Source: an uncultured Candidatus Saccharibacteria bacterium (GTDB lineage: Bacteria > Patescibacteriota > Minisyncoccia > UBA6257 > 1-14-0-10-40-38). From it: 36,014 nt of DNA. Under the pieces are notes generated by a model. The model had not been told where the DNA came from and did no database searches. It saw only the letters and a list, made by a program, of their open reading frames with translations. Within the stretch, counting starts at the first letter, position 1. Each line of letters opens with the position of its first letter. The position numbers were made by a program, and so were the translations under genes. Location: contig CAYSWC010000001.1 in the NCBI GenBank assembly GCA_964434715.1, positions 101,037 to 137,050 on the forward strand. The letters are read 5' to 3'. Positions 503-14,125 of this stretch are shown in pieces.

Positions 503-2332
503 TCATCGCCGGATTTTGTAAATTTTTACCGAGCCGTTCTCATAAACCAATGATAAGTCAGGATCTTGGCTAAAATCGACATCGGTAAACTCTCGCTCCA
601 AGGGTCCTAAATAGACGAAATCGAGGTCCAGATCTCGCCAGTTAACTCTAAACGCTCGGTAGCGATCTAATAATTCGGTGATTTTATCCTCTGGAATGGC
701 TCGATTAGGCGGATCGGCCGGATCCTGAAAATAAAGCTGATAGAGGAAAAATCTGGTCGCGAAGATATTGTTTATGATATAGGGTTTATCGCAGTCGGAT
801 AGACATTTGAGCCCCTGACCGTCGCGGAGTCTTTTTAGAAAAACTTCCTCGGTTACTTTAAAAAGTTTATTAGACCAAAGAAATCGCTCTTCCATTTCAT
901 AATTGGAAAAGGGCGTAACCCCTGACCAAGGAAGTATTGGTCTTGCCGCAGTCATGCCAGTAAGATAAACAGAGGTCACAAAAGAAGGGGAAACCACATA
1001 GGGTTCTCCGGACTGTTTTTCCATCCAGTCAAAGGAATCCAAAAGATCCTGCGGCAAAGTGTATCGCGTAAGTATCTTAGGGGGCGGATCTAAAAAAACG
1101 AAAGCATTTACGGCTTTTTTAGCGATGAGTAACGCCGCGGCTAAAATCAATACTGCCGCGGTAATTTTTTTTATACTTGGCCAGAGATCGGCCAGTTTGG
1201 TAAGCGCCTGATAGCCGAGCATAAAGATTGTCAAAAATAGAAGCGGGTTTATGGCCCTCGGCCAGTGATCCGAGTGCGGCACAAAGCCGGTAACAACCTG
1301 AATATTCCAAACGATAAAAGCAGCGATAAGAAATGAACCGAAAAGCAGGAATTGAACCCTGTCCTTTTTAAACGACCAATAAACCAATAAGAGAAGAATT
1401 GAGTAAATCAGATAATTAGGCCAAGCGGTCAAATTTAACGAATGTCCCAGCTCGAGCGATAGCCTCTCAATGTAGTCAGCGGCACCGGGCAGGGCCTTAA
1501 GTCTAAAATAGTTTACAAAGTACGGAATACTAATAAGCAAAATTACGGCTATGAGAATCATAAAATTTTTGAGCCGCTTTTTGTCAAGGCGCAGAAAAAT
1601 CAGAGTCAATAGAAATAAGACGGCGATCACGACAATCCAGTAGGTCCATTTATGAAAATAGGTATAGAAAAGCAATCCGGCTGACCCTCCGGCTAAGAGG
1701 GCGTTACGAAAGTTGGGATTCCGCCAAAACATAACGAGGAAGACAATAGCCGGGAGATATATCACGTGAGTTAAGAGCGGGTAATCAACCCGGCCGAAAA
1801 ACAATGCTGGAAGCGGCGTATTGACTAACGGATAAAAATTTTTAAGCACAATATTCCCGAGGTTGGCTAAACTCATGAACGCCTGATCAGTAAGCAGCGC
1901 CAAGGGCGTGAGCGTGCCGACCAAACTAAAAACCAAGGACCATAACCATTCTTTTTTAAATAGGAGTTGTCCCAACACAAAAAAACCAATAAACAAAATG
2001 GCGGTATAGAAGAACAGCGCTCCCACATAGGCGAGACTTATATCTTTGAAGATGACGATTGAGGCCGCGAGCAGCGCCGGCGGTATCCAAGGGTAGATAT
2101 TAGGCAGGCGCTCCTTAGCAAACATGTCGCCGGGCGGGAAATGTCCTTCAGAAACTTCACGGGCAAACTGAAAATAAGAATCGCCGCCGTCATCCAAAGT
2201 GATAAACTGGGAAGCCACAAAAGTTTGGCCAGAGTCTTCCAGATTTTTTTTAATAAAAAGCTGGGGGGCGATATGCAACGCGCCCACTAAAATCGCCGTA
2301 AGCATAACGACGAAGGGAAGAAATTTTCGCAT
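503..2332 (-). CDS. Polytopic integral membrane protein with a soluble C-terminal domain of about 190 aa; possible GT-C-fold glycosyltransferase or glycan polymerase
   Basis: 609-aa ORF with an ATG start. It is a long series of helix-length hydrophobic segments followed by a hydrophilic tail (YVVSPSFVTSVYLTGMTAARPILPW...). The acidic first loop (TLDDGGDSYFQFAREV) resembles the first extracytoplasmic loop of GT-C enzymes. The function is inference only. Confidence 0.55.
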   Translation of the reverse strand: MRKFLPFVVMLTAILVGALHIAPQLFIKKNLEDSGQTFVASQFITLDDGGDSYFQFAREVSEGHFPPGDMFAKERLPNIYPWIPPALLAASIVIFKDISLAYVGALFFYTAILFIGFFVLGQLLFKKEWLWSLVFSLVGTLTPLALLTDQAFMSLANLGNIVLKNFYPLVNTPLPALFFGRVDYPLLTHVIYLPAIVFLVMFWRNPNFRNALLAGGSAGLLFYTYFHKWTYWIVVIAVLFLLTLIFLRLDKKRLKNFMILIAVILLISIPYFVNYFRLKALPGAADYIERLSLELGHSLNLTAWPNYLIYSILLLLVYWSFKKDRVQFLLFGSFLIAAFIVWNIQVVTGFVPHSDHWPRAINPLLFLTIFMLGYQALTKLADLWPSIKKITAAVLILAAALLIAKKAVNAFVFLDPPPKILTRYTLPQDLLDSFDWMEKQSGEPYVVSPSFVTSVYLTGMTAARPILPWSGVTPFSNYEMEERFLWSNKLFKVTEEVFLKRLRDGQGLKCLSDCDKPYIINNIFATRFFLYQLYFQDPADPPNRAIPEDKITELLDRYRAFRVNWRDLDLDFVYLGPLEREFTDVDFSQDPDLSLVYENGSVKIYKIRR

Positions 2333-2357
2333 AACTAGTATAGCTACAAATTTAATG

Positions 2358-3716
2358 CTAGATAATGCGTTCTATAAAATCAACGGCGCGCTTATAAGAG
2401 AGGCCGTCGCGGTACGGTATGTAGAGCTGGGCCACTCGTTCACGATTCTCGCGATCAAGTTCTGGATGCTTGAGATATTCTTTGATCGTCTCCAAAAGTC
2501 CCTTGAGGTCGTGAGCGACGCGTACCGCGCCAAATTTGACTAGCGGCCGATAGTAAGACGCTTCCTCATAGTAGTACTTGTTTTGAAAGGGTCTCGTGGG
2601 GTCAATAAAATTTATAACCGGCTTTCCAAAGAGACATGATTCGAGCGAGATGGTTGACTTGTAATTTATGTTGACGTCGCTATAGAGGAGCGTGGCCTTG
2701 AGATTCATAAAATCTTCATCGTCCATCTCGATTTGAGTCCGACCGGTATTTCTGACCAGAACTGGCTTTCCAGCTGCTTCCACCCGAACCGCCGGCAGAT
2801 TCAAAAACTCGGCGTAGCGCTCAAGTTTATCAAAGGGATGAAGCCGGATTAAAAGATTTAGCTGCGGGAATTCGCGTTTACGCCAATCAAGAATCGCCCG
2901 AATATAATCTTTTTCAAAGCTCTCGGCTTTAGCGCCGACGGTGGCAAAAAGAATGGTCGGCTGGTCCGGGCCAAGACCTTTCCCACGGAGAAATTCCTTC
3001 CGGCTTGGAAGAGCAATCTTATTAGTAAAGTACCGATCAAAACGGGCACTGCCGGTAACCAAGACGCGACTCTCTGGAAATCGGTGAAGATTAACGGCTG
3101 CCTCACGCACCAGCTCGTTCCAGACAAAAAGATAATCCGGCTTACGGATGCGCACCGCCTTAAAACCGGTCAAATTGTCCCAGCTGAAGTTGGTGGCGAG
3201 CGTGGGAATACCGGCTTTCTGTGCCAAAATAATAGCCTCGGCATCGAAAACCTGAATCCCCGGCGTGGCAGTCATAACCAAGGCCGGCCGGTAACGCGCC
3301 AGGTAAGTTTCAAAAAGGGGGGAACGCCTGGTTAAAGCCGACTCAAGTTTGGTTAAGGTGTCAATAGTTAGCCAGGGAGAAAAAGGATAAGAAAGCGCGC
3401 GCAAGAGCCGGGCGCGCTTATCTCTAAGAAACGCCTGGGACTGGTAATAGACTGAAACGCCGGTTAAATCATCAAGTTCGTGAAGCGCCGCCGAGCGCAA
3501 CCGCTTGAATGTGGCAGCCAGCTTGGGATTCTGCAGACGCCAGGGCAGGTATTCAATATTCGGGCCGGAAAAATAGCGACGTCCTTCGCTGCTTTCGGAA
3601 ATCGAGCTGGTAAACACCACCGCCCGATATTTACTGGTTAAATACTGGATATAGCCGGTTCTAAGCAAATCGGATATAAAAAGAGGGTTTTTGAGAAATA
3701 AAAAAACTGTCTTCAT
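2358..3716 (-). CDS. GT-B-like surface carbohydrate biosynthesis protein (TagF / capsule-synthesis-like); candidate glycerophospho- or nonulosonate transferase
   Basis: 452-aa ORF with an ATG start. The pattern LIRLHPFD ... LLYSDVNINYKSTISLESCLFGKPVINF resembles the HP / SS-x-E / KP-hydrophobic pattern of TagF-type and capsule transferases. It is a clear paralog of 20450-21787, sharing SWDN[LI]T and [FY]DRY[FV] blocks. Confidence 0.5.
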   Translation of the reverse strand: MKTVFLFLKNPLFISDLLRTGYIQYLTSKYRAVVFTSSISESSEGRRYFSGPNIEYLPWRLQNPKLAATFKRLRSAALHELDDLTGVSVYYQSQAFLRDKRARLLRALSYPFSPWLTIDTLTKLESALTRRSPLFETYLARYRPALVMTATPGIQVFDAEAIILAQKAGIPTLATNFSWDNLTGFKAVRIRKPDYLFVWNELVREAAVNLHRFPESRVLVTGSARFDRYFTNKIALPSRKEFLRGKGLGPDQPTILFATVGAKAESFEKDYIRAILDWRKREFPQLNLLIRLHPFDKLERYAEFLNLPAVRVEAAGKPVLVRNTGRTQIEMDDEDFMNLKATLLYSDVNINYKSTISLESCLFGKPVINFIDPTRPFQNKYYYEEASYYRPLVKFGAVRVAHDLKGLLETIKEYLKHPELDRENRERVAQLYIPYRDGLSYKRAVDFIERII

Positions 3717-3745
3717 TTTGATTATCTGGCAGTCGTCTCAAAATA

Positions 3746-4522
3746 TTACCAGCTAGTCCAGCCTCCGTCCACCACCAGATTGGCGCCGGTCATATAACTT
3801 GAAGCTTCCGAGACTAGAAATAAAATCGCGCCGTTATACTCGTCCCGCTTAGCCATCCGGCCGAGAAGGGTGCGGGCGCTATAGGCTCGCAGGAAATCGC
3901 GATTATGGCCGGCAAAAACTCCTCCGGGCGTAAGCGTATTAACCCGGATTCCGGTCCCCCGAAGGTAGGATGCGAGCGAGCGTGTAAAGTTGGGTACGGC
4001 GCCCTTGACAGTGGCATAGCCGATTGATTTGAATTTGCCGCGATCGTAGATACGATTGTCCGGCCCTACTAAACCATAGGTGGAGCTGATGTTAATAATT
4101 GATCCGCTTTTCTGTTTTTTCATAATCGGGATTACGGCTTGAGAACATAAAAACATACCCGTCAAACCCACGGCTATTTCCCGCTGCCAAAGATCTAACC
4201 GGTAACGCTCATAAGGACGGAATTGTTCTCTGGATTCAGCTGTCCCGGGAACCGGATTTAAAGCGGCATTATTGATAAGCGCATCTAGACGGCCATATTT
4301 ATGAATAATTTCTTTTATGGTCTTACGGATTTCGTCTTTTTTGGTAATGTCAACCTGGCGGTAATCGTACTTTTTTAAAGCGGGATTTTCTTTAACATCA
4401 AAAATCACAATGCGGCCGCCCGCTGCTGATAGCGTCCGCGCGTACTCAACTCCGAGCATGCCGGCTCCGCCGGTAATAATTATAACCCGGCCTGGCAAAG
4501 AAAATAAATTTGGCAGTTTCAT
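3746..4522 (-). CDS. Short-chain dehydrogenase/reductase (SDR) family oxidoreductase
   Basis: 258 aa. Motifs are ITGGAGMLG (TGxxxGxG), NNAA, and Ser ... YATVKGAV (YxxxK). There is a 4-nt overlap with the upstream gene. Confidence 0.9.
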   Translation of the reverse strand: MKLPNLFSLPGRVIIITGGAGMLGVEYARTLSAAGGRIVIFDVKENPALKKYDYRQVDITKKDEIRKTIKEIIHKYGRLDALINNAALNPVPGTAESREQFRPYERYRLDLWQREIAVGLTGMFLCSQAVIPIMKKQKSGSIINISSTYGLVGPDNRIYDRGKFKSIGYATVKGAVPNFTRSLASYLRGTGIRVNTLTPGGVFAGHNRDFLRAYSARTLLGRMAKRDEYNGAILFLVSEASSYMTGANLVVDGGWTSW

Positions 4523-5520
4523 AATATAATCTTTTTCTTGGTTATCGAATCCTTAATGGCCAAGGCCATTCTTAACACCTCCCGACCGGTACCGAAATCA
4601 ACGAGTGGTTTTTCTTTGCCTCGGATACAGCGAAGGAAATGCTTCAATTCTTCCAAAAACATGGTATTCCGTTCAAAGCCCTTTGACTCGCGCCTGATGC
4701 GGGGAACGGCTTTTTGTTTAAACGGCAAGAAGCTCAAGGTTTTATCTTGATAATCCCAAATCATTCGCCCCTTGGTTCCCACAACTTCAAACCGACGCTT
4801 GGGCGGTCTTTCCAGATAATCCATTGATAGAGTAGCAATCAAGCCGGATTTAAACTCAATGACTGCCTGTGCTAAATCCTCAACATCAATATCTAAATCG
4901 CTTTTACGACCACCAAAAGCAACAAGTCGTTTGGGTTTCCCAAAAAACCAATAGAGATAATCCAGCTCATGACTTTGGGTTAAAACCACGCCGCCGCCCA
5001 AATCATCTCTTGCCGCATAGGTTTTCCGGTAATCTTCCCAGGGGTGCCAATCGGGTAAGTATTCGCCGATTTCAGCGTGAGCGGAGACGGGCCTGCCGAT
5101 TTTACCGGTATCCAGCCATTGCTTCATTTTGCGGAGCAATGGGTGGAATCGAAAGTTATAACCGACGTAACCAACTAACCGTTTCTTCTTAGCTTCATCA
5201 ATTAATGTCTCTAATCCCTCCAGTCGGTGAGCAAGCGGTTTCTCGGTAAAAACATGCGCGCCGCTCTCAAGAGCGCGCCGGGCTATGGAGATATGTAAGG
5301 CGGTCGGATTGGTGATGATTACGGCATCGGGCTTGAGCGTGAGCGCCTTTTCTAAATCATAGAAAATCGTCGGCTGAAATTTCTTGATAAAGGCGGCGAT
5401 AAAATCCGGATTGGCGCCGCGGCCAGTGCGATAGACAAAAATATCGCCGGCGCCCAAGGCAAGAAGATTCCGGTAATGACGCTGCCCTATTGAACCAAGT
5501 CCGGTGATAAGAAATTTCAT
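4519..5520 (-). CDS. Gfo/Idh/MocA family NAD(P)-dependent oxidoreductase
   Basis: 333 aa. It has an N-terminal ITGLGSIGQRH Rossmann motif and the FTEKPLA signature. There are 4-nt overlaps at both ends. Confidence 0.88.
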   Translation of the reverse strand: MKFLITGLGSIGQRHYRNLLALGAGDIFVYRTGRGANPDFIAAFIKKFQPTIFYDLEKALTLKPDAVIITNPTALHISIARRALESGAHVFTEKPLAHRLEGLETLIDEAKKKRLVGYVGYNFRFHPLLRKMKQWLDTGKIGRPVSAHAEIGEYLPDWHPWEDYRKTYAARDDLGGGVVLTQSHELDYLYWFFGKPKRLVAFGGRKSDLDIDVEDLAQAVIEFKSGLIATLSMDYLERPPKRRFEVVGTKGRMIWDYQDKTLSFLPFKQKAVPRIRRESKGFERNTMFLEELKHFLRCIRGKEKPLVDFGTGREVLRMALAIKDSITKKKIIL

Positions 5521-6245
5521 GAAAGTTTCAATTTTTTTAAGGCGGCGGCGACTGTTTTTAGGTCTTCCGGGCTGTCAAGATCAAGCGAGCGCTCGGGGTC
5601 CGTTATAAACCCACGCATATCAGGCCCGAAAACCCGACCTTGTTTTATAAACTTGGCGCGCGTAGCATCAACTAAGCCGTTTTGCCAATAAACCTTAGGC
5701 AGGAGCTGTCGAGGAACATCCGTGCCTAACTTTTTGAAGTAACGGGTAGGCAGAAGCGGTTTCATCTTCTTAGTCTTATGTTCCAGAAACCACATTTTAA
5801 AAGGATTATGCGGATAAGGCAGAGAGACTGATTTAACCGAATCGCACTTGATCTCACGCATAAACCGCACCACGCCGTCGATATCGCGGTAAGTTCGGAG
5901 CGGCGAAGTCGGACGGAGAATCACTATTATCTCCGGCTGCCAGCCCCGATGGTTCGCTAGCCACTTTAGAGCATGCTTTAAAAATTCAATGTCCGGCGAT
6001 TGATCGCGTGCATACCTCTGAGGACGGATAAAAGGAACATCGGCGCCCCAATATCGCGCCGTCCTGGCGATTTTAAAATCATCGGTTGAGACAATAAAGG
6101 CGTCAAGGAGTTTAGACTTTTTGGCTTCCCGAATCGTATAGTATATTAGAGGCTTGCCGAGAAGCGGAGCGATATTCTTATAGGGAATACTTTTGGAGCC
6201 GCCTCGAGCCGGAATAATTCCTAAAATAGCTACGGATTTTCTCAT
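5517..6245 (-). CDS. neuA: CMP-nonulosonate (acylneuraminate) cytidylyltransferase family protein
   Basis: 242 aa. The N-terminal IIPARGGSKSIPYKNI is the hallmark of the CMP-NeuAc/CMP-Kdo synthetase (CTP_transf_3) family. The exact sugar is unknown. Confidence 0.85.
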   Translation of the reverse strand: MRKSVAILGIIPARGGSKSIPYKNIAPLLGKPLIYYTIREAKKSKLLDAFIVSTDDFKIARTARYWGADVPFIRPQRYARDQSPDIEFLKHALKWLANHRGWQPEIIVILRPTSPLRTYRDIDGVVRFMREIKCDSVKSVSLPYPHNPFKMWFLEHKTKKMKPLLPTRYFKKLGTDVPRQLLPKVYWQNGLVDATRAKFIKQGRVFGPDMRGFITDPERSLDLDSPEDLKTVAAALKKLKLS

Positions 6246-6309
6246 TGCTCCATACTATAACATCTTTGCCGCTTGGTCGGTTGCCCGATTAGATGCCGCC
6301 TAAACCCAG

Positions 6310-8244
6310 ATGAAAAATAACCGAAGAATATTCGCGTTTCAAAATAAGCTCTACTATTCACTCAACCGCTATCTTAACTCTGAACAAGAGAACGCCGAAA
6401 CCGCTAGAGAGATTGCCGAAGGCTATAAGAAACTCTGGCCGTTTTTTAAAGATATTCCGACCGCGCCCCAAACAATAGGCGCGCCTTTTTTGCGTCTTGC
6501 TGATTATCAACATACTCCCTATCGCCAAACACTAACCAAGTTGGCTGACTTTGCACGAACCAAACTAGCGCCCTATCTAAGAACCTTTTTTATTCACGGC
6601 AGTCTGGCGACTATGGATTTTGTTCCGGGATTTAGCGATCTTGACACGCTCCTGGTTCTTAAGCAGGAAATTTGTATTAATTCCCAAAGATTGGAGAATC
6701 TCCGGCAAAAAATACAGGCGGCAAAAAAAATGTTAAGGGTGGTGGATCCGCTTGAACATCATGGATTTATTTTCTCTAATGAGCAAAATCTTAATTATTA
6801 TCCCCAACACTATCTGCCGATAACGGTTTTGCGGTATGCGAAGGTTTTAGGCGGGACCCGGTCCCTGACTTTCAATCTCCGCGATTCTTCGGAAGAGGCA
6901 AAAGAAAATTTTTATCACTACTACAATATCTTTAAAGAAATTGCAAAGACTGGCGTTATTAAAAACAAACCGGGGGGGCCGGAATACCAGCTCAAATGGT
7001 TTGTGAGCATGCTCCTTCTGATGCCCAGTTTATATCTCCAGGCCAAGGGGATTTATCTTTATAAAAAATATTCTTTTGATCTCGTCAGGCATCCCTTCCT
7101 GGATAAATTACAAAATGCCAGAAAAAATTTTAAAAATGCCGAAAAGATATTGGGCAGAAATTATTTTAAGCAAGCGCTTGATATGCTTCAGGAATGGCGC
7201 CGAGATCTTCTGGCTTATGAGAAAAAAAGAAAATTCATAAATAATCCTAAAAAACTGCCGCTCGTGATCTATCAAAAAGCGCGCCGGGAATTAATTGGGC
7301 ATTTCCGTAAAAATTCCGACGTTTTGGCTCTCTACGAATATGGTTCAGTCAGCGCGCCGGGGATCAGCGATTTAGATCTGATTTTGGTAACCAGAGAAAA
7401 ATTAAAAAATAAATTTATTTATCCTGCCGGACCGAATATCGACAGAGTCGCCAAGGGGACGCTGATGGTAATGCCAAAAAATCTTTTCGCTGATATTAAA
7501 ATCTTTGACGCCGTCAGATTAAAAAAAGTTTTCGGGGAAAGGATTAAAATTAAAGAACTAACCAAGGTAGCTCTGAAATTACGATTGGTGGCGAGCGTTA
7601 TTGACTGGCTGCCGGAACGTTTAATTCGCGTTACTTCAATGTTGCATCGCAATCCTTTGGATATCCAGTACGCCCTCCGTTATCTCCGTTCTTTCGCCTA
7701 CTCCGTCGAAAACGCGCGCAAGCTCATAAATTTCCACGGCTATCCGGAATTTATGAGCAACCTGCGGGAGATGAGAAAAAATTGGCAACCGCAAAGAAAA
7801 AAAGAGCTCTTGGCGCTGATCAAGCGGGCAGTCTATTTGGGTTATGAAGCGCTTTCCGCCTTTACGGAAAAATACGCAAAAGCTTGGCCGGGCGCGGCAG
7901 GCGAACTTACTCTCTTCAGCGGCCAAAAAATCATATTCACCAACCAGAGAGAAAAAATTGACCCGGATTGGGCTATGGCCCAGTCAACACCGGCATTAAC
8001 CAAGGTTTTTGTGAGCGCCAAGCTGCTGCCGCATTTCTTGCTTTATAGCAGGCAATCCGGGACGCTGGCGGCAGAAATGAAAAATAAACTCGCCGCCCGC
8101 GGCCGGGGAATTATTAAGAACGCTGCTTACGAACTTTTTTTGAAAAAGAAATTCGGTTTAGCTACAAAGTGTGCAGAATTTTTAAGGCAGAATGGATTTA
8201 AGTCCGGCTTATACCGGTTCGGCTTCTACTTTAAACCGAAGTAG
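6310..8244 (+). CDS. Uncharacterised protein with two tandem pol-beta-superfamily (minimal) nucleotidyltransferase motifs
   Basis: 644 aa with an ATG start. HGSLATMDFVPGFSDLDTLLVL lies at nt 6595-6660 and YGSVSAPGISDLDLILVT at nt 7339-7392. Both fit hG[GS]-x(9-13)-D-h-D-h, and each is followed by a helical region. It is the only plus-strand gene within about 21 kb and is Lys-rich and AT-rich. Confidence 0.6.
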   Translation: MKNNRRIFAFQNKLYYSLNRYLNSEQENAETAREIAEGYKKLWPFFKDIPTAPQTIGAPFLRLADYQHTPYRQTLTKLADFARTKLAPYLRTFFIHGSLATMDFVPGFSDLDTLLVLKQEICINSQRLENLRQKIQAAKKMLRVVDPLEHHGFIFSNEQNLNYYPQHYLPITVLRYAKVLGGTRSLTFNLRDSSEEAKENFYHYYNIFKEIAKTGVIKNKPGGPEYQLKWFVSMLLLMPSLYLQAKGIYLYKKYSFDLVRHPFLDKLQNARKNFKNAEKILGRNYFKQALDMLQEWRRDLLAYEKKRKFINNPKKLPLVIYQKARRELIGHFRKNSDVLALYEYGSVSAPGISDLDLILVTREKLKNKFIYPAGPNIDRVAKGTLMVMPKNLFADIKIFDAVRLKKVFGERIKIKELTKVALKLRLVASVIDWLPERLIRVTSMLHRNPLDIQYALRYLRSFAYSVENARKLINFHGYPEFMSNLREMRKNWQPQRKKELLALIKRAVYLGYEALSAFTEKYAKAWPGAAGELTLFSGQKIIFTNQREKIDPDWAMAQSTPALTKVFVSAKLLPHFLLYSRQSGTLAAEMKNKLAARGRGIIKNAAYELFLKKKFGLATKCAEFLRQNGFKSGLYRFGFYFKPK

Positions 8245-9292
8245 GCCAATTTAAAGCTTCTAGCGGTATTAGCGTATCCTCGGTAATTCCAAAGGGGGCG
8301 ATTTTGCCATATAACTCGGTTAGATATTTGGGTTTTAGGCCATTGCCCGGTCCTTTAACCGCGAGCATCTCCGCCGTTATTAGAGTTCCTTTGGTTATGG
8401 AGGTCTTGGCCACAATGCTTTTGGCTAACCGAATTCTGACCTCTTTTTCAGCTGCGCTGACAACTTTCTCGCCGGTGCCCAGAGCCGATTCCGAATGACG
8501 GATATATTTAATCATTTTCTCCAATCCCTGGGGTTCGAGCGAGGCGGCATGATCAGGGCCAATCAGGGTGCGGTCAATAGTGAAATGTTTTTCAATAACA
8601 TCGGCGCCCAAAGCTACCGCTACTGCCGGAATGGCTACCCCCTTATCGTGACTGGAATAACCCACCGGTAGCCCGTATCTTTCTTTTAATTTCTTAATCG
8701 CCTTCAAATTAACTTCCTCGTCCAGACAAGGATAATTGGAAACGCAATGGAGTAAAATCAGCTGGTCGTTATATTTTTTGATTGTGGAGACGGCCTCATC
8801 AATTTCCTCCATTGTTGACATGCCGGTTGAAACCATAAGCGGCCTGCCCTTTTTGGCTACGTGCTCTAATAATGGCAAGTTGGTTAAATCAGCCGAAGGA
8901 ATTTTAAAGTAAGGCACGTCTAAGCCTTGAACAAAATCAGCGCTTTTGGGATCCCAGACGCTGGCTGAAAAAATAAGTCCCTTACTTCGGGCAAAATCGT
9001 TTAATTCCCGCCAAACGTCTTCTGACAATTCCAGCTTGGCCCGGTGTTCTCCATAAGTCGGGGCAAGAGCCGTGGGCTTAAGATAGGGCGAATTCAATGC
9101 CTCTTTAGTTAAAATATCTTCATTGGTTCTTTTCTGAAACTTAACCGCATCAACTCCCGCCTCGGCGGCAATAGCAATAAGTTTTTTAGCCAGAGCCGGG
9201 TCGCCGTTATGATTGACGCCGGCTTCAGCCACGATAAAACAGGGCTGACCGGCGCCTACTGGACGGTTTCCAATTTTTACTACCGATTTCAT
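8231..9292 (-). CDS. neuB: N-acylneuraminate / nonulosonate synthase (NeuB family, with C-terminal SAF/antifreeze-like domain)
   Basis: 353 aa. Motifs are FIVAEAGVNHNGD, DAVKFQKRT, LLHCVSNYP, GYSSHDKG and IEKHFTIDR, with a SAF-like tail IVAKTSITKGTLITAEML. The 3' end overlaps the convergent plus-strand gene by 14 nt. Confidence 0.9.
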   Translation of the reverse strand: MKSVVKIGNRPVGAGQPCFIVAEAGVNHNGDPALAKKLIAIAAEAGVDAVKFQKRTNEDILTKEALNSPYLKPTALAPTYGEHRAKLELSEDVWRELNDFARSKGLIFSASVWDPKSADFVQGLDVPYFKIPSADLTNLPLLEHVAKKGRPLMVSTGMSTMEEIDEAVSTIKKYNDQLILLHCVSNYPCLDEEVNLKAIKKLKERYGLPVGYSSHDKGVAIPAVAVALGADVIEKHFTIDRTLIGPDHAASLEPQGLEKMIKYIRHSESALGTGEKVVSAAEKEVRIRLAKSIVAKTSITKGTLITAEMLAVKGPGNGLKPKYLTELYGKIAPFGITEDTLIPLEALNWPTSV

Positions 9293-9810
9293 ATTAAATC
9301 ATCTATCTCAAGACCGTGGGCTTTAAGAAGCAATTCTGCGACTTCGCGGACCGCATGATTCCCGCCGAGGGAACGAGTGGTATAATCGGCAACTTGCTTT
9401 ACCGCCGGATGAGCGTCGCCAACAGCAATCGCCAGCCCGACATAATTTAAAACTTTGATATCGTTTAAGTCGTCACCGATATAAGCAACCGTCTCTCGGG
9501 CCAATTGTTTCTCCCGAAGAAGCTGTTTTAGAATTCCAAGCTTGCTGGAACTGCTTTCAAGGCCCTGCCAATAAGGAATGCGGAGCTTGCGGCAACGAGC
9601 CGAGACTACCGGATTTTTTTCTTTAGAGAGGACGCCAACCAAAAAACCGTGTTTTTTGAGGAGCTCAATACCCAAACCGTCTTTGCGACTGGCACGCACC
9701 GTCTCCCGGCCGTTTTGATCTACATAGACAAAACCATCGGTCATCACGCCGTCAAAATCCATAACCAGCAGTTTAATATTCCTAAATTTATTTTTCAGCT
9801 TTAAATTCAT
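9289..9810 (-). CDS. KdsC (YrbI)-family HAD phosphatase; candidate nonulosonate-9-phosphate phosphatase
   Basis: 173 aa. Motifs are VMDFDGVMTDG (DxDGV nucleophile), KLGILKQL, AYIGDDLNDI and GGNHAVREVAELLL. There are ATGA overlaps with both neighbours. Confidence 0.85.
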   Translation of the reverse strand: MNLKLKNKFRNIKLLVMDFDGVMTDGFVYVDQNGRETVRASRKDGLGIELLKKHGFLVGVLSKEKNPVVSARCRKLRIPYWQGLESSSSKLGILKQLLREKQLARETVAYIGDDLNDIKVLNYVGLAIAVGDAHPAVKQVADYTTRSLGGNHAVREVAELLLKAHGLEIDDLI

Positions 9811-12170
9811 CTCTTTGCAAAAATCAAACTCGGCTTAAATAAACTCCAATAGTCATAAACGAACTCTACCTTATGTTCTCCTCTTGGAACAAAAATTCCC
9901 GGAAAAACGGAATTGACCTTATAAATCTCGGTTTCCTGCCCGTCAATAAAGGCGCGCCAGCCGGGAAGGTAATTTTGGGTGAATATCATAAATTCATCGG
10001 TTGCGAGAGAAGTATTGACAACCACCCGGCCATTCTCTTCTAAGATTATTTCCGCTTTTCCTTCGCCGCTAAACTCTTTATTATCGCAATCGGAACATTC
10101 CACAAATATATCTTTAAAACCGCCGGCTTTAAAGGCCTGATAAGCCAAATCGCTGTTTTCCCTAAAACCGGAAATTTTAGTGAAGTAAGCGAGCGGCCGC
10201 GGGGAAGGAATTTCGTAAATCGTAATGGGCATAGGCGGCAAACCCTGGCCCATGATGTTTAGTGCCCAGCGGGCGCGTCGGGGCAACTCTACGCTAAATT
10301 CTTCAAGATTGAAAGCTGAAAGCACATACCGGATGCCTAAAAAACTTAATAAAGGCAACCGCTCTTTAAGTAATTCATATCTCACTTTAGGAGAAGAATC
10401 AGTTACTTCAATAACGACTACGGATTCCTTCGAGCCTTGGGCGGGAATTTCTTTTGTTACTTCACTGGTTACATAAATTTTATTTAATTTCTCTTCGCCG
10501 CCGGTAGTAACCAACTGTCGGGTTCCCAAGAGCGCCATCATTCTTCCCATAGAAATATTCATAAGCGGTTCATTGGCTTCCAAATTCGCCACCGGCATCA
10601 AAAGCTGCATATTGGGGAAATAAGTTTCCCTTAAAAGCTTAAAAAAATATTCGGCTTCTGCCGCCGGCGGAGCCGATTTTTCAAACCACTGCTGAAAATA
10701 GGCATCATCCCAGTCGTCAACAAAAAGAGGCAAAATTCTGCCGGGATTTTGTCCTAGAAATTCAAGCGTCGCCGGCTTTACGTCATAATCCGCCCGAGCT
10801 GTCTCTTGGGGCGCGTAAAAAGCGCGCAAGGCGTAAATAAAATCTGCCGCGGTTATGATGACGAGTATGAAAAGCAACGCCGGCTTTTTGAGAAAAATCC
10901 TGAAAGCTAAATACGCCAAAATAAGAAACGCTCCCCCAAAAGAGACGCTAACTGCCACTGCCGGGCTCCAAAGAATGATCAAAGCAAGAAGCATTAAGCC
11001 GGCGATGGCAACGGCTATGCCGGTAAACCAGCGCTTTAAACGGTGAACCTTTGATTCTCTAATCTGTCCGACTAGATATTCAGCGCCGAATCCAACAAGA
11101 ACAGCGACTGCCAAGGCGGCGAGGATGAGAAAACGCGAGGCCCCCTGAAAATAATTAAAGACCGGGAGTTTATTGAACAGCCAAAAAAGCGGCGAGCCCT
11201 TAAAAGCGATTATCAGGGCAATCACAAACAACCACCGGAAAAACTTGGCAAAAGGATTTTTGCTCAAAAAAGATAAAACGAACAAAATCAGAGGCACAAC
11301 TCCCATATAAAGATAGGCCTCTAACCCCCTATTGGGAGTAAGGTGAAAAAAGTGCAGCAATTCTTCGAGGCCGATCGCATAGCCCTGGGCCGCTTCGTAA
11401 TCCAAACCACCGCTTCTGCCGGAAAACTGGGCGATCACGTAAGTCGGGATGATTTGAAAAAGACCGACGAGCGTACCGATTGCCCAAATCAAAAAGAAGC
11501 AGACTAACATTTTTTTTGCGGCGGTGCTGTTCCTCAAAGCCAAAAAAACGGTAAAAGCAAGACTGGCGCAAAAAATATAGACGCTGTACCAGTAACCGAT
11601 GGAGAGCCAGCTCAAACCAACGCTCGCACTAGCTCCAAGAACAGCAAAAGCCAGAAATTTGAATTTATCGCTTTTGAATATTTTGATAAGCGTCCAGAAG
11701 ATAAATATCTGACCGAATAGGCCGACAGCCATAAACACGCTCAAGGTATACCACATGCCGAAGATTAAATAACTCATGCCGCCGATCAAGGCGCCTAAAG
11801 GCCCGATCCCTAATTCTCTAAGAAAGGCGATAGCGAAAAACAAGGAAAGCGCCACGAGCATCAAGAGTGTCCAATAGTGTGCTTCAACAGGCCCAAGTAG
11901 ATACGCTAGCCAGACGGTGGGCGCGAAAGGATGCGTAATATCAACGAAATTCGGAAAACCTACGGCAAGATGAGGATTCCAAAACGGACTTTCTCCCGTA
12001 CTAAAAGCTTCTTTGTAGAAGGCGAGCTGCGGTATGAATAATTGAGTCGCATCTTGCCCGAAAACTTTACTGCCGTTTAACGCCGGCGTGAGCACAATTG
12101 CCGTGAGTACGAAAGAAAAAATAAATTGAACCCACCATTTAGACAAGTATTGTTCTAAGACGGGAATCAT
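9807..12170 (-). CDS. YfhO-like GT-C-fold membrane glycosyltransferase (paralog 1)
   Basis: 787 aa. It has a polytopic N-terminal half with GQDATQLFIPQLAFYKEAFSTGESPFWNPHLAVGFPNF. The C-terminal extracytoplasmic domain ends in QNYLPGWRAFIDGQETEIYKVNSVFPGIFVPRGEHKVEFVY, which is typical of YfhO-family C-termini. Confidence 0.72.
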   Translation of the reverse strand: MIPVLEQYLSKWWVQFIFSFVLTAIVLTPALNGSKVFGQDATQLFIPQLAFYKEAFSTGESPFWNPHLAVGFPNFVDITHPFAPTVWLAYLLGPVEAHYWTLLMLVALSLFFAIAFLRELGIGPLGALIGGMSYLIFGMWYTLSVFMAVGLFGQIFIFWTLIKIFKSDKFKFLAFAVLGASASVGLSWLSIGYWYSVYIFCASLAFTVFLALRNSTAAKKMLVCFFLIWAIGTLVGLFQIIPTYVIAQFSGRSGGLDYEAAQGYAIGLEELLHFFHLTPNRGLEAYLYMGVVPLILFVLSFLSKNPFAKFFRWLFVIALIIAFKGSPLFWLFNKLPVFNYFQGASRFLILAALAVAVLVGFGAEYLVGQIRESKVHRLKRWFTGIAVAIAGLMLLALIILWSPAVAVSVSFGGAFLILAYLAFRIFLKKPALLFILVIITAADFIYALRAFYAPQETARADYDVKPATLEFLGQNPGRILPLFVDDWDDAYFQQWFEKSAPPAAEAEYFFKLLRETYFPNMQLLMPVANLEANEPLMNISMGRMMALLGTRQLVTTGGEEKLNKIYVTSEVTKEIPAQGSKESVVVIEVTDSSPKVRYELLKERLPLLSFLGIRYVLSAFNLEEFSVELPRRARWALNIMGQGLPPMPITIYEIPSPRPLAYFTKISGFRENSDLAYQAFKAGGFKDIFVECSDCDNKEFSGEGKAEIILEENGRVVVNTSLATDEFMIFTQNYLPGWRAFIDGQETEIYKVNSVFPGIFVPRGEHKVEFVYDYWSLFKPSLIFAKR

Positions 12171-12207
12171 GTCTCTTTATTGAATAATATTATAAACACT
12201 GGGGTTG

Positions 12208-13347
12208 TTAAAAAATTTTTCTAGCCGCCTCATGAACTTTTTTAACCATATAATCTAAATTTTCTTTAGTAAGAGCAGGGTAAAGCGGCAACCGGACAAT
12301 GCTTTGACTGACTAAGTCAGTATTGGTTAATTTTGCTTTTGCCCAACCTAATTTCTTGCCTAATGGAGAAGAATGCAAAGGCACATAATGAGAGAGGGTT
12401 TTAATGCCTGCCTGTTTTAAAAATTGGATAAACTTTTCTCGTTTTTTTGGATTAACCAACAAGGCAAAAATGTGCCAGTTGGAGTCAGCGTAGGGCTTTA
12501 CCATTGGTAATTGCATTTTTGTCTTTAAATCCGCGAGTTTCCTCAATAAATATTGGGCGTGTCTTCTCCGCAGGGCGGTGATTTTATCTAATTTCCTGAA
12601 TTGGGCAATCGCCATTGCCGCCAATACGTCAGACAAGAGATAACTGCTTCCCAAACTAACCAAAGAATATTTATCAATTTCTCCTCTTATAAAGGCCGAG
12701 CGATTAGTTCCTTTTTCTCTCATAATTTCGGCTTGCCTAAAAATTTTTTCGTCATTGGTTACAAAAGCCCCGCCTTCGCCGGTAACAATATTTTTGGTGC
12801 CGTGAAAACTATAACAACCGATGTTCCCGATTGTCCCTAGGTATTTTCCTTTATACTTGGCGCCGATGGCATGACTCGCGTCTTCAATAACTTTGCAGTT
12901 GTGTTTTTTCGCTAATTTTAAAATGGCAGCCATGTCACAAGCGTGTCCGGCATAATGAACGACCATAATGGCGTGCGTCCGCGGGCTAATAGCTTTTGCG
13001 ATAGCTTCAGGATCTAAACACAAGGTTTCTTTTTCAATGTCCGCAAAAACCGGCTTAGCGCCGGCCCTTAAAATGGCGGTGGCGCCGGAGGCAAAATTAA
13101 AACTGGGCAGAATAACTTCATTCCCCTTCCCTAAACCCAAAGCCATAATCGCGAGCTCTAAGGCCGCGGTGCCGGAAGGAGTGGGTAAAACATATCGGAC
13201 TTTTAACTTTTTCTGCATTAATTCCCTTAGTTCCCGGCCGTAAAAGCTGTCACCAGTCGTTTGCCCGGATCTCATCGCGCGCACAACCAGTCGTTCTTCT
13301 TCTTTGCCTAAAAACGGCTTGTTAAACGGTATTTTATAATCAGTCAT
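12208..13347 (-). CDS. DegT/DnrJ/EryC1-family PLP sugar aminotransferase, WecE/RffA-like (dTDP-4-keto-6-deoxyhexose 4-aminotransferase)
   Basis: 379 aa. IPFNKPFLGKEE, PSGTAALELA, SFHGTKN (the PLP lysine) and REKGTNRSAFIRGEIDKYSLVSLGSSYLLSD closely match the WecE-type signature. Confidence 0.88.
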   Translation of the reverse strand: MTDYKIPFNKPFLGKEEERLVVRAMRSGQTTGDSFYGRELRELMQKKLKVRYVLPTPSGTAALELAIMALGLGKGNEVILPSFNFASGATAILRAGAKPVFADIEKETLCLDPEAIAKAISPRTHAIMVVHYAGHACDMAAILKLAKKHNCKVIEDASHAIGAKYKGKYLGTIGNIGCYSFHGTKNIVTGEGGAFVTNDEKIFRQAEIMREKGTNRSAFIRGEIDKYSLVSLGSSYLLSDVLAAMAIAQFRKLDKITALRRRHAQYLLRKLADLKTKMQLPMVKPYADSNWHIFALLVNPKKREKFIQFLKQAGIKTLSHYVPLHSSPLGKKLGWAKAKLTNTDLVSQSIVRLPLYPALTKENLDYMVKKVHEAARKIF

Positions 13348-14065
13348 AATTAATATGCTTTTTAAATCTTCGCCGAAACCTTAATAAATTAACAAAATAG
13401 TCAAAACTATCGCTCACTAGTTTAACGGTTGTTTTTTTATCAGGATTTCTAATAAATAAGACTGGCAGCGAGGAGATTTTTAATCCGTTTCGATGGGCAT
13501 AGGCGACAATTTCTGTATCCCAGAACCATCTTTGATTTTCCACTAAATCCAAAATTGGCAAAACCTTCTCTCTCAAAAAAAATTTAAATCCCGCTTCGGT
13601 GTCGTGAAACGGCAGGCCAAGCAAATGGCGGGTTAAAAAATTATAACCTCGGCTTACGATTGTCCGCGCCATAGCCTTTACACTTAGTTTGTAGATGCGG
13701 TGGGCCATGACGAAATCCGCATTGCCCACTTTTATTAAATTTACTGCCGGTAAAATATAATGGGCCGCTATCTCAAGATCAATGTCGAGGAAACCAACTA
13801 CGGGAGCGGCTGCTGCCCTAAGTCCATCAACAACAGATTGGCCACGACCATAATTTTTGTCATGAAAGATAGTTTTTATCCTTAGAGCTTTGTTCTCATT
13901 AATTATCTCCTCAATTACATTTCTCGTCCGATCTTCGCTAAAATCATCAACAAAAATAAACTCGTATTTCCACCGGGTTTGATTTAAGGTATTTTTTAAA
14001 ATGCTAAAACTTTTCTTGAGGTGCGGTGCTTCGTTATAACAAGTTATGATTAAGCTTAAGTCCAT
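13340..14065 (-). CDS. GT2 glycosyltransferase, DPM1/ArnC-like (probable polyprenyl-phosphate sugar transferase)
   Basis: 241 aa. Motifs are LSLIITCYNEAPHL, FVDDFSEDRT, GFLDIDLE and WFWDTEI. There is no C-terminal TM helix. It overlaps the aminotransferase gene by 8 nt. Confidence 0.8.
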   Translation of the reverse strand: MDLSLIITCYNEAPHLKKSFSILKNTLNQTRWKYEFIFVDDFSEDRTRNVIEEIINENKALRIKTIFHDKNYGRGQSVVDGLRAAAAPVVGFLDIDLEIAAHYILPAVNLIKVGNADFVMAHRIYKLSVKAMARTIVSRGYNFLTRHLLGLPFHDTEAGFKFFLREKVLPILDLVENQRWFWDTEIVAYAHRNGLKISSLPVLFIRNPDKKTTVKLVSDSFDYFVNLLRFRRRFKKHINYD

Positions 14066-14125
14066 GGCTCACAGAATTAATATCATATTATACTAAGCTC
14101 TTTTGGTGGGCTTATGCAAATACCA

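Follow-up and report, generated by a model that had tools for sequence, protein, structure and literature searches.

A predicted Patescibacteria gene module for a Kdn-type nonulosonic acid formed via a 9-phosphate intermediate

Organization of the gene module

The window, i.e., the whole stretch of 36,014 nucleotides analyzed, derives from a Patescibacteria genome and contains the following genes of interest:

503-2332, minus strand, polytopic membrane protein (609 aa; no Pfam or NCBIfam match)
2358-3716, minus strand, TagF-like (Glyphos_transf)/BFO_1060-family protein (452 aa; Glyphos_transf E 1e-8)
3746-4522, minus strand, PtmA-like short-chain dehydrogenase/reductase, SDR (258 aa; Pfam adh_short_C2 E 6e-41)
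4519-5520, minus strand, PtmF-like Gfo/Idh/MocA oxidoreductase, GFO (333 aa; three GFO_IDH_MocA domains in Pfam, including the C-terminal ones)
5517-6245, minus strand, CMP-nonulosonate synthetase (cytidylyltransferase; 242 aa; CTP_transf_3 E 7e-17)
6310-8244, plus strand, protein with two Pol-β-type nucleotidyltransferase motifs (644 aa)
8231-9292, minus strand, NeuB-family nonulosonate synthase with a C-terminal SAF/AFP domain (353 aa; Pfam NeuB E 4.5e-87)
9289-9810, minus strand, YrbI/KdsC-family HAD phosphatase of the KDN9P-phosphatase type (173 aa; TIGR01670)
9807-12170, minus strand, YfhO-like membrane protein of the GT-C type (787 aa; Pfam YfhO E 2.6e-7)

Four ATGA overlaps were identified: YfhO-like gene/phosphatase (9807-9810), phosphatase/synthase with the phosphatase as upstream gene, cytidylyltransferase/GFO, and GFO/SDR, the GFO gene being overlapped at both ends. 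An earlier note had described the coupling of synthase and phosphatase but not the overlap with the YfhO-like gene, and both open reading frames, their families and the overlap were found as stated there. The 4-nt overlaps that it reported among the cytidylyltransferase, GFO and SDR genes were also present, but these genes are not contiguous with the synthase gene: the plus-strand ORF of 644 aa lies between, its 3' end overlapping that of the synthase gene by 14 nt. The module thus consists of two minus-strand units, one ending with YfhO-like→phosphatase→synthase, the other with the order cytidylyltransferase→GFO→SDR→452-aa TagF-like protein→609-aa membrane protein. It reaches past 3746-9810 to 503-3716, and the YfhO-like gene (9807-12170) probably belongs to it, too. 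No NeuC-, PseG- or LegG-type gene was found in the whole window, as the earlier note had claimed, nor in the 10 kb beyond its left end, which were read on the contig of the related locus L167.

The synthase groups with characterized Kdn-9-phosphate synthases

The synthase gave scores of 359 with NeuB_NnaB, its best NCBIfam match (cutoff 400), and of 250 with PseI (cutoff 340), below the cutoffs of both equivalogs; its catalytic residues are intact. In a distance-based neighbor-joining tree of 127 synthases, it was placed in a clade of CPR and Chloroflexi enzymes (nested supports 100, 85, and 67). A superclade with 67% bootstrap support joins it with the characterized Kdn-9-P synthases BT1714 and that of Prymnesium parvum. 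The window synthase falls outside PseI, and its superclade is apart from the NeuC-linked NeuB/LegI types that include NmNeuB and a Legionella enzyme. A profile built from the superclade minus the window's own clade (G1) matched the window synthase with 455 bits versus 420.5 bits for a profile of the NeuC-linked enzymes (G2), a difference of 35 bits, and G1 exceeded G2 in 15 of 15 members of the window clade, by 24-64 bits.

The G1 signature is complete in the window synthase (K54, R55, T79, Y80, G81, H83, R84, G256, R288, and G314). When residue columns were counted over 55 superclade synthases and 62 others, K54-R55 was present in 54 of the former and none of the latter; T79, Y80, G81, H83, and R84 each reached 85-98% in the superclade, whereas T79 was found in 13% and the remaining four in 0% of the others. 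At position 288, all 55 superclade members have Lys or Arg, while V, I, and A are the commonest residues of the others. Conversely, Arg314 of NmNeuB is conserved in 61 of the 62 others, which are of the free-sugar type, versus 0 of 55 superclade enzymes; the window synthase has a Gly instead. In an AF2 model (pLDDT 92.6), R55 and residues 79-84, and with them the basic-residue signature of the group, lie on either side of the β2-α2 connection. In PMC8208679, with reference to Cotton et al. 2014, this loop is linked to the recognition of phosphate by human NANS. From its sequence, the window enzyme is predicted to be a 9-phosphate synthase that condenses a hexose-6-phosphate with PEP.

An animal-like route, in which ManNAc-6-P and PEP would be converted via Neu5Ac-9-P and Neu5Ac to CMP-Neu5Ac, is an unlikely reading of the same data. 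A presumed human NANS sequence, compared with PDB 1wvo over its 67 C-terminal residues, fell within the superclade near the sister clade of the window's clade, and the nearest solved structures of the cytidylyltransferase are CMP-Neu5Ac synthetases (9ftb, 6ifd, and 1eyr). However, R55, R84, and G256 are shared by the window synthase, BT1714, and the P. parvum enzyme, whereas human NANS has S, K, and E at these positions. Furthermore, neither a GlcNAc-6-P 2-epimerase nor GNE or NeuC was found in the window or the 10 kb beyond, and L084, a locus of the sister clade, encodes the phosphatase as a fusion with a cupin of the mannose-6-P-isomerase type, which points to mannose-6-P.

The phosphatase carries residues that probably mark the KDN9P-phosphatase lineage

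The phosphatase matched the YrbI subfamily model TIGR01670 with 131 bits (cutoff 107), while its scores with the equivalogs for KdsC (141 bits, cutoff 208) and the B. thetaiotaomicron (BT) Kdn-9-P phosphatase (108.7 bits, cutoff 180) stayed below cutoff. It is 36% identical to BT1713, and its residues E64/R72/K75 align with E56/R64/K67 of the latter. This Glu/Arg/Lys triad recurs in 36 of 36 synthase-linked YrbI phosphatases examined, BT1713 included, whereas in the solved KdsC/YrbI-type proteins 2r8e, 7t35, and 3mn1 the Glu is replaced by Arg and the Lys by Thr/Ser. Work by Daughtry and colleagues from 2013 is said to have described the Glu/Lys pair as a mark of the KDN9P-phosphatase lineage and the conserved Arg as binding the ulosonate carboxylate. 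On the basis of this description and the column pattern, the Glu/Lys pair was taken as such a mark here. The enzyme is predicted to dephosphorylate a 9-phospho-nonulosonate.

A genuine KdsC, i.e., a Kdo-8-P phosphatase serving a KdsA encoded elsewhere, would account for KdsC being the best NCBIfam match by raw score and E. coli KdsC the second-best PDB match, but we consider it extremely unlikely. The score is below the KdsC cutoff, the Glu/Lys pair differs from the Arg and Thr/Ser of the solved KdsC enzymes, and the gene is embedded in a nonulosonate module on four related contigs. Neither KdsA nor KdsB was found in about 46 kb, and LPS and Kdo are generally considered to be absent from Patescibacteria, which also counts against this assignment.

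Phosphatase and NeuC exclude each other in synthase loci

In 80 genome loci seeded with synthases, neighboring genes were counted within 6 kb. Of 20 superclade members, 13 have a YrbI phosphatase within this distance versus 0 of 58 others (Fisher 3.5e-10), and NeuC accompanies none of the 20 versus 46 of the 58 (1e-10). As neighbors, a YrbI-type phosphatase and NeuC exclude each other, and the split follows synthase phylogeny, in line with the notion of the earlier note that pairs of synthase and KdsC-type phosphatase mark 9-phosphate routes.

Locus L167 has the window's own gene order with identical product lengths. The gene set also recurs in shuffled order in the related CPR loci L001 and L164, which argues against a chance assembly. 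In both, phosphatase and synthase are apart within the cluster, so that the overlap seen in the window is not conserved: L001 retains the order YfhO→phosphatase with the synthase about 7.7 kb away, and L164 has YfhO→synthase. L166 has the composition of B. thetaiotaomicron (cytidylyltransferase→synthase→phosphatase), after which come Glyphos_transf genes and an ABC transporter gene of the Wzt type.

The arrangement in L001 would fit a free-sugar synthase of the NeuB/LegI type, with the phosphatase acting earlier to release mannose or ManNAc from its 6-phosphate, or having an unrelated function linked to the YfhO-like protein. The lack of a YrbI phosphatase within 10 kb in L003 and L165, two of seven window-clade loci examined, and NeuB_NnaB as best NCBIfam match of the synthase are in agreement. 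Nevertheless, this explanation appears very improbable, as the synthase lacks Arg314 and has the basic-residue signature of characterized 6-phospho-sugar users, the phosphatase shares both the conserved Arg and the Glu/Lys pair with BT1713, and neither NeuC nor a LegB/C/H or LegG set was found beside the synthase. The phosphorylated-intermediate route proposed in the earlier note is supported by synthase clade, synthase residues, the Glu/Lys pair, and locus context; all those checks suggested in the note that lend themselves to computation turned out in its favor.

Cytidylyltransferase and oxidoreductases

The cytidylyltransferase reached 128 bits with the PseF model (cutoff 206) and, along 134 aa, is 36% identical to the CMP-Kdn synthetase of P. 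parvum. The best NCBIfam model for the SDR was PRK09186 (166 bits, cutoff 255), titled "oxidoreductase" there, which we take to be the provisional flagellin modification protein A of CDD. The SDR also matched the PtmA model NF050062 with 117 bits (cutoff 350). Leg clusters have been described with a PtmA/LegF/PtmF trio in which PtmF is given as an oxidoreductase (PMC4481668); the likeness to the Campylobacter ptm genes drawn in the earlier note is apt. The GFO is predicted to be a tailoring or precursor enzyme. Both GFO and SDR are kept in every close relative (L001, L164, L088, and L003), and the pair occurs in about half of the superclade loci. By phmmer score, GFO homologues adjoin phosphatase-linked as well as NeuC-linked synthases.

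Proposed pathway

The genes probably constitute a self-contained Patescibacteria module for a Kdn-type (deaminated, sialic acid-like) nonulosonic acid formed via a 9-phosphate intermediate. In the pathway that we infer with regard to substrate, order of steps, role of the GFO/SDR pair, and acceptor, the NeuB-family synthase would condense PEP with a hexose 6-phosphate, most likely mannose-6-P, for which no supply gene was found in the window, to a nonulosonate 9-phosphate. The YrbI-type HAD phosphatase would remove the 9-phosphate, and the cytidylyltransferase would yield the CMP-sugar. The TagF-like/BFO_1060-like protein and neighboring GT-C-type membrane proteins may then attach the sugar to a surface glycan or wall polymer. 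The predicted product is Kdn or a Kdn-like acid. The PtmF-like GFO and the PtmA-like SDR may serve in tailoring of the sugar, or else provide or modify its hexose-6-P precursor; the final product is therefore possibly a modified Kdn. The pathway type is already known and the Patescibacteria module is a further case: a tiny-genome CPR bacterium has predicted genes for the phosphorylated-intermediate route that Bacteroides uses for Kdn and animals use for sialic acid.

The experimentally defined Kdn genes of B. thetaiotaomicron do without a GFO/SDR pair, which is therefore needless for plain Kdn, and the product may not be Kdn itself. It is conceivable, if somewhat unlikely, that the phosphorylated route holds with a product other than Kdn, the pair acting on the nonulosonate or on the hexose-6-phosphate, in the latter case by epimerization or by amination as claimed for Campylobacter. 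In that case, the module would produce a so far undescribed nonulosonic acid. The ATGA coupling of GFO and SDR to the cytidylyltransferase and their retention among relatives favor this variant. On the other hand, this GFO/SDR family is also found, at similar phmmer scores, with NeuC-linked Leg-type clusters, so its role is not specific to the phosphorylated route; no aminotransferase or acetyltransferase was found inside the module, and R55, R84, and G256 are common to the window synthase and the two Kdn-9-P synthases.

Flanking genes

Two further matches of the 452-aa TagF-like protein stayed below cutoff, namely the BFO_1060 family domain (E 1e-23) and the surface carbohydrate biosynthesis protein model TIGR04396 (E 3e-12). 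The Kdn genes of B. thetaiotaomicron and the loci L166, L164, L088, and L003 likewise have Glyphos_transf genes at their flanks, and the protein is a candidate CMP-nonulosonate transferase or polymerase. The 609-aa membrane protein, hydrophobic over about 420 aa, is kept in L001 and L167 as the last gene of the cytidylyltransferase-GFO-SDR-transferase unit. The 644-aa protein gave weak Pfam matches alone (Polbeta and Adenyl_cycl_N) and no NCBIfam or PADLOC match. Its family appears restricted to Patescibacteria, and it is also encoded in L001, L164, and L167. All named ones among its 27 homologues are from Patescibacteria/Parcubacteria, and for several the length of the longest contig (24918, 31778, 78815, and 9240) is the same as for a synthase homologue, which suggests that they share contigs.

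Gene organization of the module

The five minus-strand genes that the earlier note had read from the sequence, together with their family assignments, were recovered by ORF calling and by Pfam and NCBIfam searches. The module and its surroundings comprise the following features.

503-2332, minus strand: polytopic membrane protein of 609 aa without a family match, continuing the CTP-GFO-SDR unit after the 452-aa gene
2358-3716, minus strand: TagF-like/BFO_1060-like protein, 452 aa, continuing the CTP-GFO-SDR unit
3746-4522, minus strand: SDR (Pfam/NCBIfam)
4519-5520, minus strand: Gfo/Idh/MocA oxidoreductase, GFO (Pfam/NCBIfam)
5517-6245, minus strand: CTP_transf_3 cytidylyltransferase, CTP (Pfam/NCBIfam)
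6310-8244, plus strand: 644-aa protein with two Pol-β-type nucleotidyltransferase motifs
8231-9292, minus strand: NeuB-family synthase with SAF/AFP domain, 353 aa (Pfam/NCBIfam)
9289-9810, minus strand: YrbI-family HAD phosphatase, 173 aa (TIGR01670, NCBIfam)
9807-12170, minus strand: YfhO-like polytopic membrane protein
12208-16153, minus strand: dTDP-glucose 4,6-dehydratase, formyltransferase, GT2 and WecE-like aminotransferase, upstream of the module
16173-18719, minus strand: second YfhO-like polytopic membrane protein
30461-34279, minus strand: 1272-aa protein with an N-terminal peptidoglycan-binding domain and no other recognised domain

ATGA overlaps were found at four junctions (YfhO-like/phosphatase, phosphatase/synthase, CTP/GFO and GFO/SDR). 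The last three had been described before and stood; the 644-aa ORF had been missed. This plus-strand ORF is convergent on the synthase gene with a 14-nt overlap, and since it sits between synthase and cytidylyltransferase the module consists of two minus-strand units. A promoter and terminator scan of 2200-12400 gave counts that did not differ from those in shuffled sequences. The whole window is a glycan-biosynthesis island that elsewhere contains GT2 and GT4 glycosyltransferases, methyltransferases and a second BFO_1060-like protein. The genomes of Patescibacteria are tiny, and many members of the group are attached to host cells. Surface-glycan genes, among them a complete module for a sialic-acid-like sugar, occupy a contig stretch of at least about 46 kb here, which suggests that the cell surface is a major investment.

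Phylogenetic placement of the synthase

The synthase passed the Pfam NeuB model PF03102 (291.9 bits, cutoff 22.1) and scored below the NeuB/NnaB equivalog TIGR03569 (359.2 bits, cutoff 399.65) and the PseI model TIGR03586 (249.8 bits, cutoff 340.25). The catalytic and metal-binding residues of the free-sugar reference enzyme NmNeuB (E25, K53, Q55, K129, S132, S154, Y186, S213, H215, E234, H236 and D247) are all kept. Its closest homologues are 56-78% identical, and the named ones belong to Patescibacteria (Sungbacteria, Giovannonibacteria) and Chloroflexi.

A scan of genome collections with an alignment of the window clade yielded 80 loci from named organisms, bacteria and archaea. ORFs were called in all loci and then searched with the window's own proteins and one NeuC from locus L003. 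[quoted passage not shown] 2018 (PMC6200933); BT1714 and BT1715 were read from metagenomic B. thetaiotaomicron loci that were found by a scan with BT1713 and are identical in it. The NmNeuB sequence used is identical to PDB 1xuu. The human NANS sequence served as a lead only, its C-terminal 67 residues (AFP domain) being the part verified as consistent with 1wvo.

In a neighbour-joining tree of 127 synthases (100 bootstraps), 55 leaves formed a phospho-sugar synthase superclade (G1, 67% support) with the window clade, BT1714, the P. parvum enzyme and human NANS. All loci in which a YrbI phosphatase adjoins the synthase or is fused to a cytidylyltransferase fall in this superclade, and the window clade lies inside it with nested supports of 100, 85 and 67. 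A second group of 62 leaves (G2) comprised NmNeuB, a Legionella enzyme and the loci where NeuC, DegT and dehydratase genes adjoin the synthase. The phylogenetic check that had been proposed for the synthase thus placed it with Kdn-9-P synthases and outside the NeuC-linked NeuB/LegI group; PseI, which like SpsE is not among the sequences of the tree, is excluded by the NCBIfam scores only. In agreement, a profile comparison independent of the tree favoured G1, built without the window clade, over G2 for the window synthase by 35 bits (455.1 versus 420.5 bits), and for 15 of 15 window-clade members by 24-64 bits.

A free-sugar NeuB/LegI-type enzyme is at odds with the Gly at position 314 in place of Arg (NmNeuB numbering) and with the lack of an Epimerase_2 gene in the window and in the 10 kb past its left end. 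The best PDB matches (6ncs, 1vli, NmNeuB and PseI 8h2c) were about equally distant (E 1e-45 to 1e-54), and PDB searches retrieved no solved structure within the phospho-sugar synthase group.

A third clade of 10 leaves, from Chloroflexi and Doudnabacteria, contained synthases fused to a xylose-isomerase-like TIM barrel of roughly 290 aa (AP_endonuc_2, E 4e-32). Such fusions were seen at 9992-11878 of locus L094 and also in L098, L099, L100, L111, L114, L118, L129 and L138. They keep the K-R pair described below and lack Arg314 and the TYGEHR motif, and a phosphatase is usually not nearby.

Signature residues of the synthase

The two groups are separated by a set of residues, all of which are in the G1 state in the window synthase, including R288 and G314. 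K54-R55 (window numbering) was present in 54 of 55 G1 sequences and in none of the 62 of G2, which mostly have T-F. T79, Y80, G81, H83 and R84 each occurred in 85-98% of G1; in G2, T79 reached 13% and the other four 0%. G256 was found in 95% versus 0%. Position 288 of NmNeuB is Lys or Arg throughout G1 (55/55) and mostly V, I or A in G2, whereas Arg314 occurs in 0/55 versus 61/62.

When these positions were located in an AlphaFold model of the window synthase (pLDDT 92.6), R55 directly followed strand β2, residues 79-84 ended the long β2-α2 connection, R288 was part of the linker helix and G314 of the AFP domain. The residue inspection proposed earlier revealed the basic G1 signature at the β2-α2 connection and the absence of Arg314. 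According to work cited in PMC8208679, the β2-α2 loop favours phosphate recognition in human NANS (Cotton et al. 2014) and NmNeuB requires Arg314 (Joseph et al. 2013); in eukaryotic NanS, Arg314 is replaced (PMC8208679), as it is in the window. We infer that the additional basic residues of G1 synthases form a phosphate site.

At R55, R84 and G256 the window synthase matches the two Kdn-9-P synthases, whereas the human NANS sequence has S, K and E in these three signature columns. This agreement points weakly to mannose-6-phosphate as the possible substrate.

Assignment of the phosphatase

The phosphatase passed the YrbI/KdsC subfamily model TIGR01670 (131.3 bits, cutoff 106.95), and its D18 and D20 align with D10 and D12 of the BT1713 DxD motif. 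It scored below both the KdsC equivalog NF007019 (141.2 bits, cutoff 208) and the Bacteroides-type Kdn-9-P phosphatase NF058599 (108.7 bits, cutoff 180); it belongs to a different sequence subtype from the latter. Its best solved relative was 3mmz, an uncharacterised HAD hydrolase, followed by E. coli KdsC; BT1713 ranked lower.

We aligned 36 synthase-linked YrbI proteins with BT1713, 3mmz and three KdsC/YrbI-type proteins (2r8e, 7t35 and 3mn1). All 36 carry Glu at the position of BT1713 E56 and Lys at that of K67, and all except the protein of locus L088 carry Arg at that of R64, whereas in the solved structures 2r8e, 7t35 and 3mn1 Arg stands in place of the Glu and Thr or Ser in place of the Lys. 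The corresponding residues of the window phosphatase, which is ATGA-coupled to the synthase, are E64, R72 and K75. In agreement with this column pattern, the Glu/Lys pair reportedly marks the KDN9P-phosphatase lineage, whose members are said to stand alone or to be fused to the nucleotidyltransferase of the pathway. With this pair, the Arg and the synthase linkage, the window protein falls within that lineage in its broad sense.

The earlier note had named two findings that would overturn its reading, a synthase within PseI or LegI clades and a Kdo-8-P phosphatase paired with a KdsA elsewhere; as far as they could be checked, these conditions did not refute it. KdsC, the Kdo-8-P phosphatase of LPS biosynthesis, and the window phosphatase belong to the YrbI/C0 HAD family and share the DxD motif and the conserved Arg; the window protein, however, is below the KdsC cutoff and differs from KdsC by Glu instead of Arg and Lys instead of Thr/Ser, and no KdsA or KdsB was found around it in about 46 kb.

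The window phosphatase has the motif subtype S-K/T-E-x-NPVV, as do the Streptomyces protein 3mmz and Chloroflexi fusions. Since 3mmz, annotated as 'putative HAD family hydrolase', shares this subtype (S-T-E-x-NPVV...R..K), a Kdn-9-P-type phosphatase is more probable for it than a KdsC. Cytidylyltransferase~YrbI-phosphatase fusions were found in L111 (4100-5278), L161 (7205-9349), L122, L145 and L149, where they adjoin short NeuB-family synthases without an AFP domain.

Genomic context across loci

In synthase-seeded loci, a YrbI phosphatase lay within 6 kb in 13/20 G1 versus 0/58 G2 cases (Fisher p 3.5e-10), and NeuC in 0/20 versus 46/58 (Fisher p 1e-10); counts from such loci are unbiased, yet the loci are phylogenetically non-independent, and the split is clean. 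No NeuC/LegG-type hydrolysing 2-epimerase (NeuC/Epimerase_2) was detected in the window, as stated in the earlier note, or in the 10 kb past its left end. The latter were read on locus L167, which has the window's gene order and identical product lengths and carries the view 10 kb further left, with radical-SAM, GHMP kinase, epimerase and GT2 genes.

Two related CPR loci contain the same genes in a different arrangement. In L001 (synthase 74% identical) YfhO->phosphatase is followed by a 640-aa gene on the opposite strand and by CTP->GFO->SDR->TagF-like->610-aa->synthase; in L164 (72%) YfhO->synthase is followed by a 646-aa gene on the opposite strand and by phosphatase, EamA transporter, GFO, SDR, CTP and TagF-like genes. 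That the content is kept while the order is shuffled argues for a functional module and shows that the phosphatase-synthase overlap itself is not conserved. More distant members of the clade differ among themselves. In L088 (Sungiibacteriota) SDR-GFO-CTP and the synthase precede a convergent, divergent YrbI-like gene, and in neither L003 nor L165 does a YrbI phosphatase lie within 10 kb. L166 (Chloroflexi) has CTP->synthase->phosphatase, followed by an epimerase, TagF-like genes and a Wzt ABC transporter.

The order CTP->synthase->phosphatase also occurs in L084, from a Methanophagaceae archaeon (synthase 54% identical to the window's). Its phosphatase (8012-8872) has a C-terminal cupin corresponding to the C-terminal domain of mannose-6-phosphate isomerase (E 2.7e-6, above the gathering score). 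This fusion physically links mannose-6-phosphate formation to the pathway and is a substrate clue from a sister clade.

Comparison with known pathways

Phylogeny, the residue signatures in both enzymes and the context statistics support the earlier proposal that the module would make a Kdn-like or modified nonulosonate through a phosphorylated intermediate, as a component of a surface glycan. Pathways of this type are known in B. thetaiotaomicron, in P. parvum and in animals, which makes the window module another member. What is notable in it is the Patescibacteria host, the attached PtmF/PtmA-like pair and the lineage-specific 644-aa protein.

The Kdn pathway of B. thetaiotaomicron, as summarised in PMC6200933 from Wang et al. 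2008, consists of the Kdn-9-P synthase BT1714, the Kdn-9-P phosphatase BT1713 and the CMP-Kdn synthetase BT1715. The window has the same three enzyme families, and NeuC is absent from both. BT1714 and the window synthase share the superclade and the K-R, TYGEHR, basic-288 and no-Arg314 signature, the Glu56/Arg64/Lys67 triad of BT1713 is present in the window phosphatase, and a Glyphos_transf gene is adjacent in both. The phosphatases, however, are only 36% identical and differ in motif (S-K/T-E-x-NPVV in the window versus T-G-E-x-T-E-IV in BT1713). Besides its Patescibacteria host, the window differs by the addition of the PtmF/PtmA-like pair, the CPR-specific 644-aa protein and the putative GT-C membrane proteins.

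The Kdn-9-P synthase of P. parvum is strictly mannose-6-phosphate-specific (Wagstaff et al. 2018, PMC6200933), and no dedicated phosphatase was found in this alga (PMC6200933). It is 34% identical to the window synthase, with the same superclade and signature residues, but lacks the SAF/AFP domain of the latter; the algal CMP-Kdn synthetase and the window cytidylyltransferase share 36% identity over 134 aa. The animal NANS/NANP/CMAS route (ManNAc-6-P to Neu5Ac-9-P) follows the same phosphorylated-intermediate logic with an N-acetylated substrate. NANP is a different HAD type. A cytidylyltransferase~KdsC-like fusion architecture like that of mammalian CMAS also occurs in the related bacterial loci L111 and L161.

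Cytidylyltransferase and accessory proteins

The cytidylyltransferase passed CTP_transf_3 PF02348 (62.3 bits, cutoff 22.6) and was below the PseF equivalog (128 versus 206). Its closest solved relatives are CMP-Neu5Ac synthetases (PDB matches 9ftb, 6ifd, 1eyr and 1qwj).

In legionaminic-acid clusters a PtmF/PtmA pair flanks the CMP-synthetase gene (PMC4481668), and by NCBIfam and by comparison with these clusters the window GFO and SDR resemble this pair. The likeness to ptm loci suggested earlier holds in that PtmA (SDR), PtmB/LegF (CMP-synthetase) and PtmF (oxidoreductase) of Campylobacter and Plesiomonas have their family trio side by side in the window. For the SDR it is at family level only, with 117 bits versus 350 for the PtmA model NF050062 and 166 versus a cutoff of 255 for its best model, PRK09186. 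The Campylobacter/Plesiomonas clusters contain NeuC/LegG, LegB, LegC, LegH and a free-sugar LegI, whereas the window trio accompanies a phosphatase-linked synthase and none of those. GFO/SDR homologues with similar phmmer scores adjoin both G1 and G2 synthases, which suggests a role generic to nonulosonate clusters. For plain Kdn, B. thetaiotaomicron can dispense with both. Solved GFO relatives are generic inositol and sugar dehydrogenases.

The 452-aa and 458-aa proteins match Pfam Glyphos_transf and the BFO_1060 domain model, the latter with scores far below cutoff (84 and 66 versus 200). Their nearest known counterparts are the Tannerella forsythia BFO_1060-family nonulosonate transferase and TagF-type CDP-glycerol glycerophosphotransferases. 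TagF-like genes adjoin Kdn-type modules in B. thetaiotaomicron, the window, L166, L164, L088 and L003. This recurrence and the BFO_1060 and TIGR04396 matches single out the 452-aa protein as the foremost candidate CMP-sugar transferase. In the B. thetaiotaomicron Kdn locus the Glyphos_transf gene (852-2111 in L005/L006) lies directly upstream of BT1715; the BT1714 copy of the metagenomic L006 is frameshifted.

The 644-aa protein had only 27 homologues in a set of 5.8 billion proteins, every named one from Patescibacteria/Parcubacteria, and several appear to share contigs with synthase homologues. Judged by the names of these and of the synthase homologues, the host is very probably a member of the CPR. 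A role as a defence-system component was dropped, as PADLOC gave no match.

Possible product and implications

A literature search on nonulosonic acids in Patescibacteria returned nothing directly relevant. The five-enzyme core (PtmF-like GFO, PtmA-like SDR, 9-phosphate-type synthase, KDN9P-type phosphatase and CMP-synthetase) and the 644-aa protein could conceivably make a nonulosonic acid other than Kdn, Neu5Ac, Leg and Pse, as a lineage-specific CPR surface sugar; an example would be an epimeric or redox-tailored nine-carbon acid from a modified hexose-6-phosphate. We consider this unlikely.

As five small soluble enzymes, the module offers an assayable handle on CPR surface chemistry. The residues also provide a rule by which phospho-sugar and free-sugar synthases may be told apart (K-R after β2, TYGEH(R/K), basic 288 and loss of Arg314), with a matching rule for the phosphatases (Glu/Lys versus Arg and Thr/Ser). 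Annotation pipelines now merge these enzymes under 'N-acetylneuraminate synthase family' and 'KdsC family', and annotation cannot separate such synthases (PMC8208679, PMC10483923). If the rule is confirmed, it implies a wide occurrence of Kdn-type routes among environmental Chloroflexi, CPR bacteria, archaea and other groups.

Further genes of the island

The gene set at 12208-16153 looks like a dTDP-4-formamido-4,6-dideoxyhexose pathway and hence a separate sugar route. A role in Leg-like precursor supply was rejected, as dTDP-4-amino-4,6-dideoxyhexose models scored above cutoff and a hydrolysing 2-epimerase is absent from the window and from the 10 kb past its left end. The three large membrane proteins of the island (503-2332, 9807-12170 and 16173-18719) may act on the outside of the membrane as GT-C-type transferases, and the 1272-aa protein (30461-34279) could be a surface protein to which glycans are attached. 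Past the left end of the window (L167 11950-21830, L001 11185-21062) follow a B12-binding radical SAM protein, two GHMP kinases, methyltransferases, epimerases/dehydratases and a second GFO, and in L001 also a transaldolase-family and a SIS-domain gene; this continuation suggests a heptose-type pathway.
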